Below, in pieces: positions 1,118 through 64,000 of a DNA stretch of 64,000 bases (within the stretch, counting starts at the first letter, position 1; the number at the start of each line of letters is the position of its first letter). Made by a program: the position numbers and the translations under genes. Under the pieces are notes generated by a model. That model was not told where the DNA came from. It did not search any database and saw only the letters and a list, made by a program, of their open reading frames with translations. The stretch is from an uncultured Acidimicrobiia bacterium (lineage in GTDB: Bacteria > Acidobacteriota > Terriglobia > Versatilivoradales > Versatilivoraceae), in contig CAWBAT010000005.1 in NCBI GenBank assembly GCA_963786955.1, positions 1,024,001 through 1,088,000 of the forward strand, given 5' to 3'.

Positions 1118-2224
1118 TCAACGATGAACATAAGCCTCGACGAGTATGTCCACACCTACCGGTTTAATGGAATAGAAACTCAATTCTATCCCATCCACCA
1201 AATTGATGAACCCCGGTTCTCCCACGAAGGGTAGGGGGGGGACCCCTCCAAGGATTCTCGGCGCAACGAAACAATACAATTTATCCACAGCCCGCTGTTG
1301 AAAAGCCGAAAAATTAACCGTCGGTCCCGCTTCGATGAGGAGGCTCGTCATTTCCCGTCGTCCCAGTTCTTCCAGAATGCTGTCAAAGGAAAGCCGATCT
1401 TTTTCTCTTGGAACGACAATGACTTCAACGCCTTCTTCTTCGAGCTGGTTCTGACGAGAAGGATCCCGTTCAGGCGAACAAAAAACCATTATACCACCTT
1501 CCTTCCGGCTCTGGACAAGTCGACTGGCCAAGGGTAATTGCAGCTGAGAATCCAGGACGCAACGCAAAAGCGGCCGGCGGCGGGCTTGCCCCGTGCGGTC
1601 GGTCAGAAGAGGATCATCTTTCAGAATCGTCCCAATGCCCGTCAATAGTGCATCACTCTCGAATCTGAGTTGCTGTGCCCTCTCGCGGGATCGTTCACTT
1701 GAAATCCACTGGGAATGGCCGTCTGACTGAGCAATTTTCCCGTCCAGCGTCATGGCCGTCTTGAGGACCACCCATGGCCTCCGAACTCGAATATACTTGG
1801 AGTATGCTTCATTGAGCTGAAAAGCCTCTTCCTTTCCGATGCCCACGGTCAAATCGATCCCGGCTTCTTTTAACTTTCGGAAGCCCTCCCCAGAAACCAG
1901 CGGGTTCGGATCTTCCATCGCAGCAACGACCTGAACAATTCCAGATTCGATGACACGCGAAACACAGGGAGGGGTACGCCCGAAATGAGCGCAGGGCTCG
2001 AGATTAACGTAAAGAGTGGCGCCTCTGGCCTTCTCACCGGCCGCCTCGATAGCCCAGACTTCTGCATGCGTCTTCTCTGCAAAACGGTGGAAGCCCTCCG
2101 CGATGACCTGTCCTTCCTTTACGAGGAGGGCCCCGACCAGGGGGTTAGGACTGACGAGCCCTCGTCCCTGTCGTGCGAGATCCAGCGCACGGGCCATGAA
2201 GAAATTATCTTTCTGACCGGTCAT
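1118..2224 (-). CDS. ribD: Bifunctional riboflavin deaminase/reductase
   Basis: PNPLVG, HAE, LEPCAHFGRTPPC zinc motif, and KTAMTLDGKIA reductase domain. Confidence 0.95.
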   Translation of the reverse strand: MTGQKDNFFMARALDLARQGRGLVSPNPLVGALLVKEGQVIAEGFHRFAEKTHAEVWAIEAAGEKARGATLYVNLEPCAHFGRTPPCVSRVIESGIVQVVAAMEDPNPLVSGEGFRKLKEAGIDLTVGIGKEEAFQLNEAYSKYIRVRRPWVVLKTAMTLDGKIAQSDGHSQWISSERSRERAQQLRFESDALLTGIGTILKDDPLLTDRTGQARRRPLLRCVLDSQLQLPLASRLVQSRKEGGIMVFCSPERDPSRQNQLEEEGVEVIVVPREKDRLSFDSILEELGRREMTSLLIEAGPTVNFSAFQQRAVDKLYCFVAPRILGGVPPLPFVGEPGFINLVDGIELSFYSIKPVGVDILVEAYVHR

Positions 2225-2259
2225 CCGAGTTCCGCGTAGAGGAGCCGATTGGAAACTTT

Positions 2260-3206
2260 TTATTCAAAGAGGGAATTGATAAATTGCTCGGAAGAAAATT
2301 CGATGAGGTCATCGATTTTCTCTCCGATCCCGACATACCGAACCGGGAGGTTCAGATCACGGACGATGGATATGACAACTCCTCCCTTTGCGGTACCGTC
2401 CAGCTTCGTTAAGACAATTCCCGTTACTCCTGCGCTTTTTGTGAATTCCCGGGCTTGCGCCAAACCATTTTGTCCGGTGGTCGCGTCAATCACGAGCAGA
2501 ACCTCATGCGGGAGCGGTCGGAATTTCTCTTCCCGCAATGCGCCGCATCTTTTCCAGTTCTGCCATGAGATTCGCCTTGTTATGCAAGCGGCCCGCGGTA
2601 TCCACGATTAAAATGTCGATCCCGCGAGATTTGGCCGATGCGATGGCATCAAAAAGAACAGCGGAAGGGTCTGCTCCGGGTTTTTGGCGAATGACACTAA
2701 CGCCTGCCCGCGTCTCCCCAGATTTCCAATTGCTCAATTGCGGCAGCACGGAAGGTATCGGAAGCACAAACCAAGACCTTTTTCTCGTCGCGCACACAAA
2801 GGTTGGCCAATTTCCCGATCGTGGTTGTCTTCCCAACTCCATTAACCCCGACAACCATGATCACCCAGGGCCCATTCGCCGTTTGCGCATCGGGAGGCCT
2901 GTGCACTGAGTCTAGCATATTTTCAGCTCACTCTTGATCATCAATTTGAGCTGCGCCGGATCACTTAGTTGACGACGACTGACCTGATTGCGAATCTTGG
3001 CGAGCAACTCATTGGTCGTCTCAATCCGATATCGGACCCAATCAGGATCGGACTCCAGTTCATCGAGGAGGTTCGGCATCGATTTCCTTCTTCCCTTGGA
3101 TGACATCCTCAATGCGGGCAACAAGATTGGATTTGGTTGCGGCAACAGCCGCCTTAAGTTTACTGAAGAATCCTTCTCGGTTTTCCAATTTTTGGAATAA
3201 TTTCAT
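2260..3206 (-). CDS. ftsY: Signal recognition particle receptor, frameshifted in assembly
   Basis: [43 protein letters not shown] and [10 protein letters not shown] across several short ORFs. Confidence 0.92.
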
Positions 3207-3445
3207 TAGGTGCCTCAATCATCAGGTCAGAGGATGATCCTCCGATGAAACGCATCAGGCTTTACGGTCTCTGGCAGTGGGTATGATACCACTTCTTCCG
3301 GTGCGCGTTGAAAATTGAAGTGTCTTAAGTAGGCTGGATCCCCCCTCAATGGGATTCCAAAGCTTCATCCTCTATCTGAGAGGGAAGAGGGCGGCCGTGG
3401 ATTCTGTCCACTTTCCAACAACTAGAAGTTTCGCCAGGCTTGGTT

Positions 3446-5209
3446 TCAAACGGCAATAGCTTCTGGAGCAGGATGTGCAAGTTTAACCACCAGATGCCCT
3501 CGCTCGATGGCTTCGTTGAAGGCACCGACAACTGCAGGATCGTACTTGACACCTGCATTCATGGTGATTTTCTCGCGGGCATACTCAAAACTGAGGGCCT
3601 TTTGATAAGGACGATTCGTAGTCATTGCATCCAAGGTATCGGCAACGGAAATAATCCGCGCAATGAGTGGAATTTCATCGGATCGCAAACGATCCGGATA
3701 ACCATTGCCGTCCCATTGTTCATGATGGAAGCGCAGTCCAGGCAACATGTTGCGCATTTGCTCAATGGGTTTCATGATGTTGTAACCTTTGACGGTATGC
3801 AACTTCATGATCTCAAATTCTTCCGGCGTCAAGAGGCCCGGTTTCTTCAGTACTTTGTCATCGACACCAATTTTACCGACATCGTGGAGCAGGGCCGCAA
3901 TTCGGATGGTTTCCAAAGCCATTTCGTCTAACCCTAGCTGACGTGCGATAATCACCGAATATTCAGTGACTCGTTCGGAATGACCCCTTGTATACGGATC
4001 TTTTTCATCGACGGCGGCAGCCAGGGCCCGAATGGAGCCTAGGAAAAGGGCTTTGTTTTCTTCACCGGCCCGCCGGATCTGCTGAATGTAGAGTTCAAGA
4101 TCGCCGGTCATTTTGTTGAATGTTTCCGCTAGTTCGCCTATTTCATTCCGGCTTTTGATCTGGATTTTCTTGGAGAAGTCTCCTTTGGCGATCGAGTGAC
4201 TCCCTTCCACTAATTGGCTAATGGGATCCGTGATAGATCGTGCACTGTAGATTCCGACACCGGCTGAAAGCAATAACATCAGGATGCCCCATTTGATGGT
4301 CTCGGCTTTCATCTCCGCTACGGTGGCAAAGGCCGCCTTTTGATCGATCTGGACGATGACACCCCAAGGAGCTTCAGCAATCCCAAAATAAGTGCCCAGC
4401 ATTTCCTTTTGATTTCCATCCTCAACGAGCTTGAAGGGCCGAGTCTCCTGCAAGCGCAACATTCCTTTGGACAGCCGCCACTCCTCCATGAAGGCGGAAA
4501 CAATTTCGATTCGACTGAAATCCATTCCAGCAGGGTTCATCTTTTGATCCGGATGGACCACAATCTTTCCGTTGAAATCGACTACATAAGCTTTCTTGCT
4601 GGCCACACTACTGTCGGTCACCCAGCGGAGAATATCATCCAAAGCAAGGATGACGGTCGTGGCTCCTACCCAATGCCGGGAATCCGATTTGATCGGTCTC
4701 GACATGATGATGACAGGGCGGCTTTGATTCCCAACCTCCACGGTCAGGGGCTCACTCACATAAGTCTGGTCCTGGCTAGCATGCTGAAAGGCTTTAGTCA
4801 GATAGTGCTGGGTCATTTCGTCTTCATCCCCATTGTAGACTCCAGCTCGAACCCCTTTCCCTCTCTCATTCACAATATTGATATAGAGAAGATTTTTATC
4901 GCGAGTGACGAAGTCTTCGAGTTTTTTCTGCAAGGCGGGATTGGCGTTCAATTGTGCCATTTGGGAGGAACCCCCGCTGAGCTCCAAAGCGCTGGCAACA
5001 AACCCGTCGATTTGTTTGCGTGCGCTACTGAGGTAGAGGGAAATCAAGCGGGAAAGCGATTGAGCAATACTGATTTGCGAGAATCGTTCTTGGGTCTGAA
5101 GTTTTTCCCGATTGAGCCGAATCAACTGGTAGCCATAAAACCCGAGGGGACAAACACTCACCAGCATGAGCACCAGCATTACATGATGAAGAATCTTAGT
5201 CCGTTTCAT
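3446..5209 (-). CDS. Membrane Cache-HAMP-HD-GYP phosphodiesterase
   Basis: Two TM segments flank a periplasmic Cache-like region. HAMP (NEIGELAETFNKM), then YTRGHSERV, LHDVGKIG and HHEQWDGNGYP. Confidence 0.9.
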   Translation of the reverse strand: MKRTKILHHVMLVLMLVSVCPLGFYGYQLIRLNREKLQTQERFSQISIAQSLSRLISLYLSSARKQIDGFVASALELSGGSSQMAQLNANPALQKKLEDFVTRDKNLLYINIVNERGKGVRAGVYNGDEDEMTQHYLTKAFQHASQDQTYVSEPLTVEVGNQSRPVIIMSRPIKSDSRHWVGATTVILALDDILRWVTDSSVASKKAYVVDFNGKIVVHPDQKMNPAGMDFSRIEIVSAFMEEWRLSKGMLRLQETRPFKLVEDGNQKEMLGTYFGIAEAPWGVIVQIDQKAAFATVAEMKAETIKWGILMLLLSAGVGIYSARSITDPISQLVEGSHSIAKGDFSKKIQIKSRNEIGELAETFNKMTGDLELYIQQIRRAGEENKALFLGSIRALAAAVDEKDPYTRGHSERVTEYSVIIARQLGLDEMALETIRIAALLHDVGKIGVDDKVLKKPGLLTPEEFEIMKLHTVKGYNIMKPIEQMRNMLPGLRFHHEQWDGNGYPDRLRSDEIPLIARIISVADTLDAMTTNRPYQKALSFEYAREKITMNAGVKYDPAVVGAFNEAIERGHLVVKLAHPAPEAIAV

Positions 5210-13880: not shown

Positions 13881-14070
13881 CTAGCTGATTCCCTCTGGCG
13901 GTGGTAGCTCACGGTCACCGCGCCCTCCGAAGTAAAGATAGAGGGTCGGTAGCACGATCAAGATGATCAGGGTTGCCGAAACTAGGCCTCCAATAATTAC
14001 CACCGCCAGCGGCTTCTGAACCTCCGATCCAATTCCTTTTGAAAATGCCATAGGAAGCAAACCCAGCATG
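13881..14070 (-). pseudogene. C-terminal remnant of CusA/CzcA heavy-metal RND pump
   Basis: LGLLPMAFSKGIGSEVQKPLAVVIIGGLVSATLIILIVLPTLY is the last two TM helices of HME-RND pumps; the rest of the gene is absent. Confidence 0.85.
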
Positions 14071-14138
14071 AATTGAGCTTCCCTCGTCAACCACTTACCT
14101 CAAAAGAAATAGTCACAAGCAGTCCCGAAAACCCCTAA

Positions 14139-15026
14139 GTACTGCTATTCGTAATTGCGGTGATATATCTTAAGATAGGCGCCGCGTGGGGTCACGCGGC
14201 CTACAAAGTTGATAGGGGTAGGAAGAGCCGATTCATTTCGGCCCCTCCCCCCTCCGAACCGGACAGGCGGATCTCCCGCATCCGGCTCTCCAGTTGGTGG
14301 TTTTACCTGAAACAGGATTGACCGACTTCCCCAAGACGGTGTCCAGAGTTCCGCTTGGTTCAGCAAAGTAAGTTGTTTTACTTCCATCCTCCGAGGAGGA
14401 TCGTCAACATGCGTAACTTCCAGAGCGACCGTTTCCTCTTCCTTGCAACCGAAGAGGCTTCTCCGACTCGCTTAGCCCAAGGGCACTCACGCCGGTTAGG
14501 TTTAGATCCCACTTTCCGTTACTCATCCACCTTCCTGCGTCCCTTCGCTCCATCCCCGTTACGAGACTTCGCCGCTACTATGGACGCTCTGACTCCTGTC
14601 AGCTCGGCTCTTCGGTCCTCTACCAGCAACATGAACACCGTCTCTGTTCGCCAACAGGTCTCCCTGATTCACGTGTCTGACCTTCCGATCCCTCCGTCTC
14701 CAACCACCCCCCAGGCCCTCGACGTCGATTTCGCACGCTACCCCTCATCGCATCGAGTTTCCCACTCTCGTGGGTCTAGGTTTCACCTTTGCCTAGCAGG
14801 CTCACCGACTCTGACAGGCCGAATCGAGTTTCTTATCGTACGGATGGATCGTTCACCTCCTGTTGCTCCCCACCCCGCCTCGCGGCGACGCAGTTACAGT
14901 TGGTTACAGGCCGGAGAGCGTATACCTGAAGAGGACTTCCACCTCTCCAATCAAACACGCTTTCAGGCGCACTAGGCCGGGTCACCGACCCGGCGTTAAC
15001 GTTACCGTATTTATGAAAAGCAGTAC
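14139..15026. mobile_element. MITE family A (127 bp without intron) carrying two GTAG REP-like hairpins, interrupted by a group II intron
   Basis: Imperfect ~27-bp terminal inverted repeats GTACTGCTATTCGTAATTGCGGTGAT / GTTACCGTATTTATGAAAAGCAGTAC. TAA on both flanks (14136-38, 15027-29). Related copies at 60732 and 63874. Confidence 0.8.
14212..14972 (-). mobile_element. Group II intron, ORF-less (internally deleted RT/maturase), 761 nt
   Basis: 5' end GTGCG; domain V GAGCCGGATGCGGGAGATCCGCCTGTCCGGTTC (AGC triad); domain VI ending CTACCCCTAT. Removing it restores the intact repeat seen at 63880-63915. Confidence 0.92.
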
Positions 15027-60731: not shown

Positions 60732-60889
60732 GTACTGCTTTTCAAAAATACGACGACGTTAACCCCGGGGAGGTGATGAAGCATTGAGAATGCTTCATGC
60801 CTACAACTATGTAATGGGGCTATCTCAAAGCCCCAACCTCACGCGGCGCCTATCCTAAGGTAAGTTGCCGTAATTACGAATAGTAGTAC
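60732..60889. mobile_element. MITE family A, intron-free copy with replaced hairpins (opposite orientation to 14139 copy)
   Basis: GTACTGCTTTTCAAAAATACG...CGTAATTACGAATAGTAGTAC termini; flanks CAA/TAA; central GCCTACAACTATGTA. Confidence 0.8.
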
Positions 60890-63824: not shown

Positions 63825-63873
63825 ATTGAGGGTTCACTATAGATTCGCGAGGAATTGAAGTCAAGCGAGGGGG

Positions 63874-63946
63874 CACGCGTCCTACAAAGGTGTAGGCCGG
63901 GTCACTGACCCGGCGTTAACGTTATCGAATTTCTGAAACGCAGTAC
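63874..63946. repeat. MITE family A, partial intron-free copy
   Basis: CACGCGTCCTACAAAGGTGTAGGCCGGGTCACTGACCCGGCGTTAACGTTATCGAATTTCTGAAACGCAGTAC matches the joined intron flanks; the left TIR is missing. Confidence 0.85.
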
Positions 63947-64000
63947 TACGCCACCACATAGCCGCGCAGAATTTCGTCAAGTTGTTCGGTGGTCAACGGC

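Follow-up and report, generated by a model that had tools for sequence, protein, structure and literature searches.

Insertion behind a DNA stem-loop is a textbook habit of group II introns of class C (IIC). In the excerpted text of Toor 2006 (PMC1702495), the IIC RNA is characterized by a CGC triad, a distal domain V stem 2 bp shorter than its counterpart in IIA and IIB introns, an exon-binding site 1 (EBS1) of 3-4 bp, an EBS3, an 11-nt epsilon' bulge with a conserved AGGAA and an abbreviated ribozyme, that of the O. iheyensis IIC intron measuring 412 nt (Nagy 2013, PMC3753933). The available portion of Chung 2022 (PMC10190682) describes the shape of the stem-loop as being read jointly by protein and RNA; the single-stranded bases that follow are recognized through pairing with EBS1 and EBS3. 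Here we analyze a 64,000-nt stretch of DNA (the window) from an uncultured Acidimicrobiia bacterium (assembly GCA_963786955.1, contig CAWBAT010000005.1, positions 1,024,001 to 1,088,000 of the forward strand), in which a group II intron without an open reading frame (ORF) interrupts a GTAG-tagged repetitive extragenic palindrome (REP). Taken as a whole, the evidence is probably best explained by a group II intron retroelement that deletion has reduced to a non-autonomous, ORF-less form and that is targeted by a hairpin in conjunction with EBS1 and EBS3.

Outside class C, the excerpt of Miura et al. 2022 (PMC8919778) places introns with intron-encoded proteins (IEPs) of types g6, U1 and U2 directly behind predicted terminators; the portion of Sonbol & Siam 2021 (PMC7923331) at hand states that upstream stem-loops have been reported only for IIC introns. 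GTAG-tagged REPs and their doublets (REPINs) are defined, in the partial texts of Di Nocera 2013 and Bertels & Rainey 2011, as short GC-rich stem-loops with a GTAG tag that occur in many dispersed copies and in head-to-head dimers, all of which is true of the doublet in the window, and the head-to-head arrangement is given as the commonest GTAG-REP dimer type (Di Nocera 2013, PMC3733652). REPs are used as abundant intergenic landing sites, much as they are here, by ISPpu9, ISPpu10 and IS1397, elements that differ from the present one in being DNA transposons (excerpts of Tobes & Pareja 2006, PMC1525189). The same excerpts mention a group II intron of P. putida KT2440 with 2 of its 9 copies, a minority, associated with REPs, and give no mechanism for it.

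The Rfam group II intron model RF00029 (domains V and VI) matches 14212-14290 of the minus strand with 55.4 bits (E 3.7e-8, gathering score 40). On this strand the element begins with GTGCG at 14972 and ends with ...CCUACCCCUAU at 14212, displaying the group II end motifs (5' GUGYG, 3' AY) as GUGCG...UAU, and 761-nt copies in two relatives, 95-96% identical to it, have the same first and last bases within other flanks. The locus reads, in minus-strand order, GCCGGGTC-GGT-GACCCGGC-CTA, the intron GTGCG...CCCCTAT, C-AACTTT-GTAG and GCCGCGTG-ACCC-CACGCGGC. No reverse-transcriptase (RT) ORF was found within the intron, and a 206-aa ORF on its opposite strand has no Pfam match. Positions 14212-14972 are hence a real, gene-less group II intron with exact ends; the same ends had been proposed by a first-pass annotation made from the letters of the window, and they are borne out by the RF00029 match, by the 761-nt relatives and by an uninterrupted version of the repeat in which the intron lies.

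That repeat has a unit of ~84 nt and ~80 copies in the genome. It consists of two GTAG-tagged hairpins placed head to head, with 8-bp stems, 3-4-nt loops and tags that face each other across AACTTT, and the intron sits between the two hairpins. In the copy at 63865-63948, positions 63881-63914 read ...GACCCGGCCTAC-A... without the intron. A BLAST search of this copy against the whole genome yields 83 matches at E<=1e-4 (self included), among which the 5' flank of the intron is aligned up to, and exactly to, the insertion point. The minus-strand sequence and the empty site together bear out the proposal that CTA|C, at the base of a REP hairpin, is divided by the intron. Two uninterrupted sites had been put forward in its support: the one at 63881-63914 belongs to a true homologue, and the one at 60799-60813 turns out to be a looser relative, in which another hairpin is followed by GCCTACAACTATGTAA.

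Sites of this kind are common in the genome, as had been supposed. At a genomic GC content of 51.5%, a hairpin of at least 6 bp lies 0-2 nt upstream of 1075 of the 21814 CTAC sites (4.9%), a value to be set against ~1.9-2.2% for GTAG itself and for four control tetramers obtained by shuffling; CCTA and GCTA, tails that overlap with CTAC, reach 3.9% and 3.3%. The commonest stem among these hairpin+CTAC sites is the intron's own 5'-exon hairpin (49 sites), followed by the GCCGCGTG/CACGCGGC stem of the second REP (46 sites). Candidate sites formed by a hairpin and GCCTA|C number 184, and one of them is occupied.

Target reading was analyzed across the relatives of the intron. From 94 5' junctions we removed 5 same-locus duplicates; 87 of the remaining 89 contained enough of the intron to be aligned, and in 80 of these the whole EBS1 column is present together with a flank of 5 nt or more. 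Over these 80 copies, EBS1 and its exon partner, intron-binding site 1 (IBS1), pair at all five positions in 61 when G-U pairs are counted and in 46 on Watson-Crick pairs only, with 4/5 pairing in a further 17; 44 distinct EBS1 and 43 distinct IBS1 sequences are represented. Counting each EBS1/IBS1 combination once, 38 of 55 pair 5/5, whereas 2000 permutations average 2.3, peak at 8 and in no case attain the observed count. Shifting the register by 1, 2 or 3 nt leaves 5/5 pairing in 0/80, 0/80 and 0/79 copies, respectively. When 190 intron columns were scanned without bias against exon positions -1 to -25, EBS1 emerged as the sole covarying intron-exon pairing, with pairing frequencies of 0.92-0.93 over exon -1 to -5. 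The first base of the 3' exon (IBS3) pairs with EBS3 in 69 of 73 copies (C:G 57, A:U 7, U:A 2, U:G 3). No EBS2 signal was detected in the segment 5' of the EBS1 stem, the mean exon complementarity of which is 5.37 against 5.46 +/- 0.13 in permuted data; an EBS2 candidate there, suggested by its by-eye likeness to one REP arm, was rejected by this permutation test and by the unbiased scan.

In the window, UAGGC (14795-14791) is located, in the RNAalifold consensus described below, within the loop that closes a stem of domain I. It is EBS1, and intron nt 269 is EBS3; the former assignment had been put forward as a candidate in the first-pass annotation, as a partner for GCCUA, and both the fold and the covariation in 61 of 80 copies uphold it. 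Six target bases are the only ones read by base pairing, five through EBS1 and one through EBS3. In the window they are GCCUA|C, comprising the last two bases of the stem and the full CTAC, the complement of GTAG.

The other constant of the target is the hairpin. Eighty copies have a 5' flank of 45 nt or more, and for these we compared the occurrence of an uninterrupted stem ending 0-6 nt before the insertion site with that in random windows of the same loci. Stems of at least 6 bp are found in 59/80 copies and 274/2997 control windows, stems of at least 7 bp in 53/80 and 87/2997, and stems of at least 8 bp in 40/80 and 41/2997. Forty-nine of the 59 hairpins end 2-4 nt before the splice site (2 nt in 15, 3 nt in 20, 4 nt in 14), and 49 of the 59 have loops of 3-4 nt. 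The tail behind the hairpin is far less uniform: where both flanks are available (72 copies), the junction CTA|C leads with 17 copies and CTAC| occurs in 2, leaving 53 others, such as CTC|C (9), CCA|C (7), TGA|C (7) and TCC|A (6). The lineage thus follows GC-rich hairpins, mostly 2-4 nt ahead of the splice site, and not GTAG as such; GTAG-REPs rank first among its targets without defining it. The proposal that the intron homes into GTAG-REPs accordingly holds insofar as CTA|C leads the list of junctions, and gives way to the hairpin as the target of the lineage as a whole, IBS1 varying freely. The further claim that the lineage is programmed for GTAG must be abandoned in view of the 53 other junctions, the 44 EBS1 sequences and the copies seated behind unrelated hairpins. 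Table 1 lists the features of the locus.

Table 1. Features of the intron and its target site in the 64,000-nt window.
Feature	Position	Strand	Details
ORF-less group II intron, GUGCG...CCCCUAU	14212-14972	minus	761 nt, six domains, domain IV internally deleted
5'-exon REP hairpin, GCCGGGTC-GGT-GACCCGGC	14976-14994	minus	3 nt between its end and the 5' splice site
IBS1, GCCUA	14973-14977	minus	last 2 stem nt and CTA of the CTAC tag; 5/5 pairs with EBS1
EBS1, UAGGC (intron nt 178-182)	14791-14795	minus	terminal loop of a domain I stem
EBS3, G (intron nt 269)	14704	minus	pairs with the first 3'-exon base
IBS3, C	14211	minus	first 3'-exon base, the last base of the CTAC tag
Domain V, 33 nt	14256-14288	minus	AGC triad 14287-14285, CU bulge, 4-bp distal stem, 5-nt loop GAGAU
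Domain VI	14214-14255	minus	unpaired A at 14219, 8th base from the 3' end, candidate branch point
Second REP of the doublet, GTAG and GCCGCGTG-ACCC-CACGCGGC	14181-14204 (hairpin 14181-14200)	minus	head-to-head with the first REP
Empty site: uninterrupted ~84-nt REP-doublet repeat	63865-63948	plus	true homologue of the intron's site

Directly downstream of the REP doublet, a 69-aa ORF (13881-14090, minus strand) matches only positions 972-1020 of the 1021 of the AcrB/RND (resistance-nodulation-division) transporter family and resembles the leftover 3' end of a pump gene that has been truncated.

A consensus structure of the ribozyme was built with RNAalifold from 7 ORF-less copies. It comprises six domains and 215 pairs, shows compensatory changes at 53 of these, and leaves the candidate branch-point A of domain VI unpaired (alignment column 768, between pairs 738-767 and 737-769). 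The AGC triad of domain V and its 33-nt length are each conserved in 74 of 75 copies, the domain V loops listed being GAGAU, GAAAU and similar 5-nt sequences; the start GTGCG is found in 69 and the end CCCTAT in 72 of the 75. Without its ORF (~nt 452 to 1783 of 1871), the ribozyme of a full-length relative measures ~540 nt. The Rfam subclass models for domains I to IV yield sub-threshold matches only (D1D4-1 22.1 bits, D1D4-3 21.5 bits) and are of no use for class assignment. With its 33-nt domain V, AGC triad and 5-nt loop, the ribozyme has an IIB-like core.

Even so, the manner of insertion invites the alternative that this is simply a canonical IIC intron. The lineage has the IIC lifestyle: as in B.h.I1 and the IIC retroelement of Chung 2022, a DNA stem-loop stands a few nt upstream of intergenic insertion sites, a short EBS1-IBS1 pairing is complemented by a single EBS3-IBS3 pair (a trait also of IIB introns), EBS2 is missing and the protein has no endonuclease domain (available portions of PMC1702495 and PMC10190682). 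The protein of the lineage (444 aa, RVT_1 and GIIM) likewise has its best solved relatives in GsI-IIC, so named by its depositor (212 bits), and in the group II intron RT/maturase 7uim (205 bits), with the 6me0 maturase RT (151 bits) and LtrA (138 bits) scoring lower. We take the 7uim chain to be of the IIC class, and the 6me0 and LtrA chains to be of the chloroplast-like (CL) and mitochondria-like (ML) classes. Full-length copies measure 1836-1943 nt, and IIC introns are of similar size. Three defining features of the IIC RNA are nonetheless absent: the triad is AGC, the distal stem of domain V is unshortened at 4 bp, and EBS1 has 5 bp (6 in some sublineages, by eye), to which the 33-nt domain V and its 5-nt loop may be added. 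The hairpins differ as well, being GC-rich, REP-like repeats without a T-tract in place of the terminators used by IIC introns.

The same genome provides a direct comparison in a textbook IIC intron on another part of the assembly (G000:C5, ~1950-5075; L005-L008, outside the window), which has a CGC triad, a 3-bp distal stem, a 4-nt loop and a 5'-exon hairpin followed by a T-rich run, and encodes a 459-aa RT-maturase ~2.4-3.7 kb into the contig. The lineage protein is 37% identical to this protein, against 54-100% within the lineage (best 80 of 188 stretches). We therefore regard a canonical IIC identity as unlikely, and the earlier call of a non-IIC lineage is sustained on the side of RNA structure, for which alone it holds. 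As a separate observation, the 3' part of the IIC intron at G000:C5 is repeated 1242 nt downstream, with a second GIIM and domain V match and a 295-aa ORF in which the first protein's C-terminal part recurs unchanged.

Among the remaining described classes, IIE and IIF introns (Nagy et al. 2013, PMC3753933) resemble the lineage in having an IIB-like ribozyme of 450-700 nt without the ORF, a 5-nt domain V loop and a protein without endonuclease domain, and comparable phyla are the source of their g5 variety (Ku.st, So.us, Ge.ur, Pe.th). They differ in that those studied were picked for a clear EBS2-IBS2 pairing and treated as site-specific, where the lineage has a hairpin and no EBS2. The alpha' placement typical of these classes, at the tip of the Id3 stem-loop, is weakly supported here: ACGCU (14921-14917) could pair with AGCGU (14739-14735), the latter in a terminal loop, and over 73 copies 4.15 of 6 pairs form, a marginal excess over the 3.91 of shuffled data (maximum 4.14). 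The g6, U1 and U2 introns have protein types outside class C and, like the lineage, an IIC-like placement behind hairpins, the excerpt of Miura 2022 counting among its terminators 'I-shaped' ones without a U-tract. The g6 RNA, however, is IIC-like (Toro & Nisa-Martinez 2014, PMC4244168), unlike that of the lineage; the comparison with U1 and U2 concerns their placement, and the excerpt of Miura 2022 makes no mention of REPs or of EBS1 retargeting. Finally, IIC-attC introns and the IIB introns found beside attC (partial text of Sonbol & Siam 2021, PMC7923331) likewise have a structured single-stranded DNA repeat directly upstream; their target is the integron attC and not a REP, and the IIB cases given there are single or truncated and come with no covariation evidence.

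The origin of the window copy is apparent from its alignment to an ORF-containing relative, which covers nt 1-513 (90.5%), 540-570 and 651-761. The ORF of that relative is open from nt 416 to 1783, and the window copy lacks ~1.2 kb of it while retaining the first ~120 nt, the region in which a protein-binding subdomain would be expected; the protein itself would have to be supplied in trans. ORF-less forms of 708-763 nt occur in 7 genomes and have a common structured remnant of domain IV with compensatory changes, and two of the relatives (G002 and G010) hold ORF-less and ORF-containing copies side by side, which is consistent with mobilization in trans. ORF-less bacterial introns were reportedly held to be rare by Simon and colleagues in 2008.

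A gene for the cognate IEP was not found in the 93%-complete assembly of the host genome, and the window copy is therefore probably stranded. An RT fragment elsewhere in the genome (G000:C4:876199-876957, minus strand; 353-aa open frame, 49% identity over residues 51-287) was considered as a helper copy and rejected because no ribozyme ends of the family lie nearby. The window copy might instead still be mobile, with help in trans from the unrelated IIC intron, whose 459-aa protein is intact and stands in the same genome as a window ribozyme that looks intact too. Against such help stand the 37% identity of the two proteins, group II intron proteins being generally specific for their own RNA, and the state of the genome, which contains one full copy and one internally deleted remnant despite its 184 candidate sites; we consider it improbable. 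The remnant (G000:C4:568526-568692; L002 1501-1667) has 167 nt, joins nt 1-104 to the last ~79 nt and lies behind another GTAG-REP, CCGGGGCC-AAC-GGCCCCGG-CTAC, where it follows the whole CTAC and not CTA.

The wider family was sampled in two ways. Matches to the intron, ORF-containing copies among them, were obtained in 27 of 61 genomes (the host genome and 60 related ones), and the 444-aa protein of a relative, searched against a set with a single genome for each species, led to 188 confirmed stretches. The best 80 of them (54-100% identity) are labeled as coming from metagenome-assembled genomes (MAGs) of Acidobacteriota, Planctomycetota, Verrucomicrobiota, delta-proteobacterial groups and others; the search also gave 5 loci on a 7.9-Mb Limisphaerales chromosome, with four of the 5' junctions examined. 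Members with 52-53% identity are present on plasmids of Cupriavidus and Paraburkholderia, the next plasmid match standing at 44.6%. Of the 75 copies with both ends, 65 measure 1836-1943 nt and 7 measure 708-763 nt, with one each of 167, 1030 and 3214 nt. The 3214-nt copy (L043, G002:C13:262347-265560) exceeds its relatives by ~1.3 kb, has an EBS1 mismatched to its own flank and may carry an insertion. The plasmid copies of Cupriavidus taiwanensis (L140) and Paraburkholderia aromaticivorans (L141) reside in cultured bacteria, where they are annotated only as ltrA, and have a common flank with a 5-bp hairpin, ACCGC-GTCA-GCGGT, followed by TTAGT| and matched by an EBS1 of ACUAA; L141 lies between integrase genes, and a transglutaminase-like protein is annotated beside L140.

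It is also conceivable that these introns practice ordinary sequence-specific retrohoming, to a homing site that happens to be a repeated REP consensus with an incidental hairpin. Near-identical flanks among copies of one genome (for example L040/L041 and L127-L131) and the one flank common to the Cupriavidus and Paraburkholderia plasmid copies are what such homing would leave. It accords poorly, however, with the occurrence of near-identical ribozymes behind completely different hairpin sequences, with the restriction of covariation to 6 nt, and with a hairpin whose position is constrained (a gap of 2-4 nt in 49/59 copies) while its sequence is not. The target hairpins are themselves dispersed repeats in relatives, with 30 copies of one in G010 (control 1) and 19 and 21 copies of another in G002 and G006 (control 0). 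In delta-proteobacterial MAGs, closely related and intermixed introns are found at ...GGAATCC| (L096, L094, L101) and at ...GGAATGA| (L100, L109-L111), with EBS1 reading GGAUU and UCAUU, respectively, and EBS3 altered to match as well; by eye, the two sites resemble a single palindromic repeat read in either orientation. On a quick IQ-TREE phylogeny of 61 IEPs (the broken ORFs of L013, L037, L039 and L057 dropped, ORF-less and 3214-nt copies excluded by length), sister copies carry different targets, and the CTA|C label requires 7 changes among 14 rows, at least 3 of them forced by strongly supported branches. Environmental contigs at least 90% alike vary at all five EBS1 places and at EBS3. 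Since EBS1 and EBS3 differ this freely between close relatives, copies have been retargeted to the tails of different hairpin repeats, and we hold ordinary retrohoming to be very unlikely. The reverse association, in which REPs have spread beside introns or the mobile unit includes the hairpin, draws on the mobility of REPs themselves and on the 21 matches to Y1-transposase (Y1_Tnp) in the genome, and is close to refuted by the ~80 intron-free doublet copies with one precisely interrupted, by an EBS1-IBS1 covariation that puts the hairpin outside the intron and by hairpins that vary between copies.

With regard to these transposases, GTAG-hairpins stand beside at least 3 of 10 Y1-transposase genes examined, the CCGGGGCC family targeted by the remnant copy included, and no member of the GCCGGGTC/GCCGCGTG REP family appeared within 700 nt of these 10. 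The genes at G000:C7:33291-33614 and C9:203666-204010 have GTAG-tagged hairpins on their flanks in a REPtron-like layout, the one on C9 adjoining the CCGGGGCC family, and the genome has several distinct REP families.

Several observations weigh against hairpin targeting with EBS1 and EBS3 as set out above. Twenty-one of the 80 copies have no uninterrupted stem of at least 6 bp, and 7 have none at a 5-bp threshold, several of the 21 being interrupted palindromes by eye; at least one EBS1-IBS1 mismatch occurs in 19 of 80 copies. Copies from one genome or from close kin are non-independent, and the counts given here overstate the number of events. Recognition of the hairpin by structure rather than by sequence is suggested by the diversity of hairpin sequences. 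The GC skew is weak (about -0.01) and gives opposite answers for the two copies of the genome, rendering the replication strand uninformative.

Neither splicing nor mobility was seen in the read data. Metagenomes from freshwater, wetland and sediment and metatranscriptome libraries contain near-identical pieces of the intron family and barely cover the flanks of the window copy: 20 runs contain part of the stretch, none with more than 0.49 of its words, and in the four compared at 90% likeness the cover falls mainly on conserved intron parts and stems from many organisms. Two contigs from RNA libraries do skip the intron, running from 14210 to 14973 with one other letter and from 14205 to 14973 with 35 other letters, and are uninformative on splicing because the repeat occurs ~80 times in the genome and the joint departs from the exact exon junction.

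The IIC observations of Chung 2022 provide the basis, by analogy, for a mechanism of hairpin targeting in this lineage. A ribonucleoprotein would recognize the folded hairpin by its shape on single-stranded DNA at replication forks, EBS1 and EBS3 would pair with the six bases behind it, and the RNA would reverse-splice at that point, the inserted intron then being copied with the nascent DNA strand as primer. The intergenic location of REPs would make such insertions harmless to the host.

As to precedent, hairpin targeting is itself a known mode, and the placement of introns behind hairpins outside class C is partly in print (excerpts of Miura 2022, PMC8919778). In the literature searched we found no description of group II introns targeting REPs or REPINs, and in the papers found on REPINs and REP-associated tyrosine transposases (RAYTs) the term 'group II intron' is absent, save for a passing mention in two insertion sequence papers. 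The first-pass annotation had known of no description of the targeting; this stands for REPs and REPINs, and is partly preceded by Miura 2022 and by Tobes & Pareja 2006 (PMC1525189), to the extent of the text available from each. What appear undescribed in the literature examined are a non-IIC ribozyme with hairpin targeting, its coupling to REPs through retuning of EBS1 and EBS3, and an ORF-less sublineage. More broadly, and tentatively, we propose that an IIB-like lineage spread over many phyla parasitizes REP/REPIN populations by hairpin targeting, retaining its need for a hairpin and retuning only EBS1 and EBS3 to the tail of the REP family present in a given host, and has given rise to a persistent ORF-less sublineage mobilized in trans in the manner of miniature inverted-repeat transposable elements (MITEs).

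Were this proposal correct, the targets of a lineage of REP parasites would include GTAG tags and a palindrome used in either orientation, among others, and hairpin targeting would not be peculiar to class C. In a lineage as well sampled as this, the combination of a non-IIC core with targeting by a hairpin and 5 + 1 nt is relevant to the history of structured-DNA targeting, which may be ancestral or may have arisen repeatedly, and offers a second, independent system for the study of how an intron ribonucleoprotein reads DNA shape. A 6-nt guide and a hairpin also make a simple rule, potentially exploitable for repeated intergenic sites. The finding links group II introns to REP/REPIN biology, in which REP tails appear as moving targets followed through changes in EBS1, and RAYT/REPIN systems and introns would then be two mobile systems of single-stranded DNA with one common substrate.

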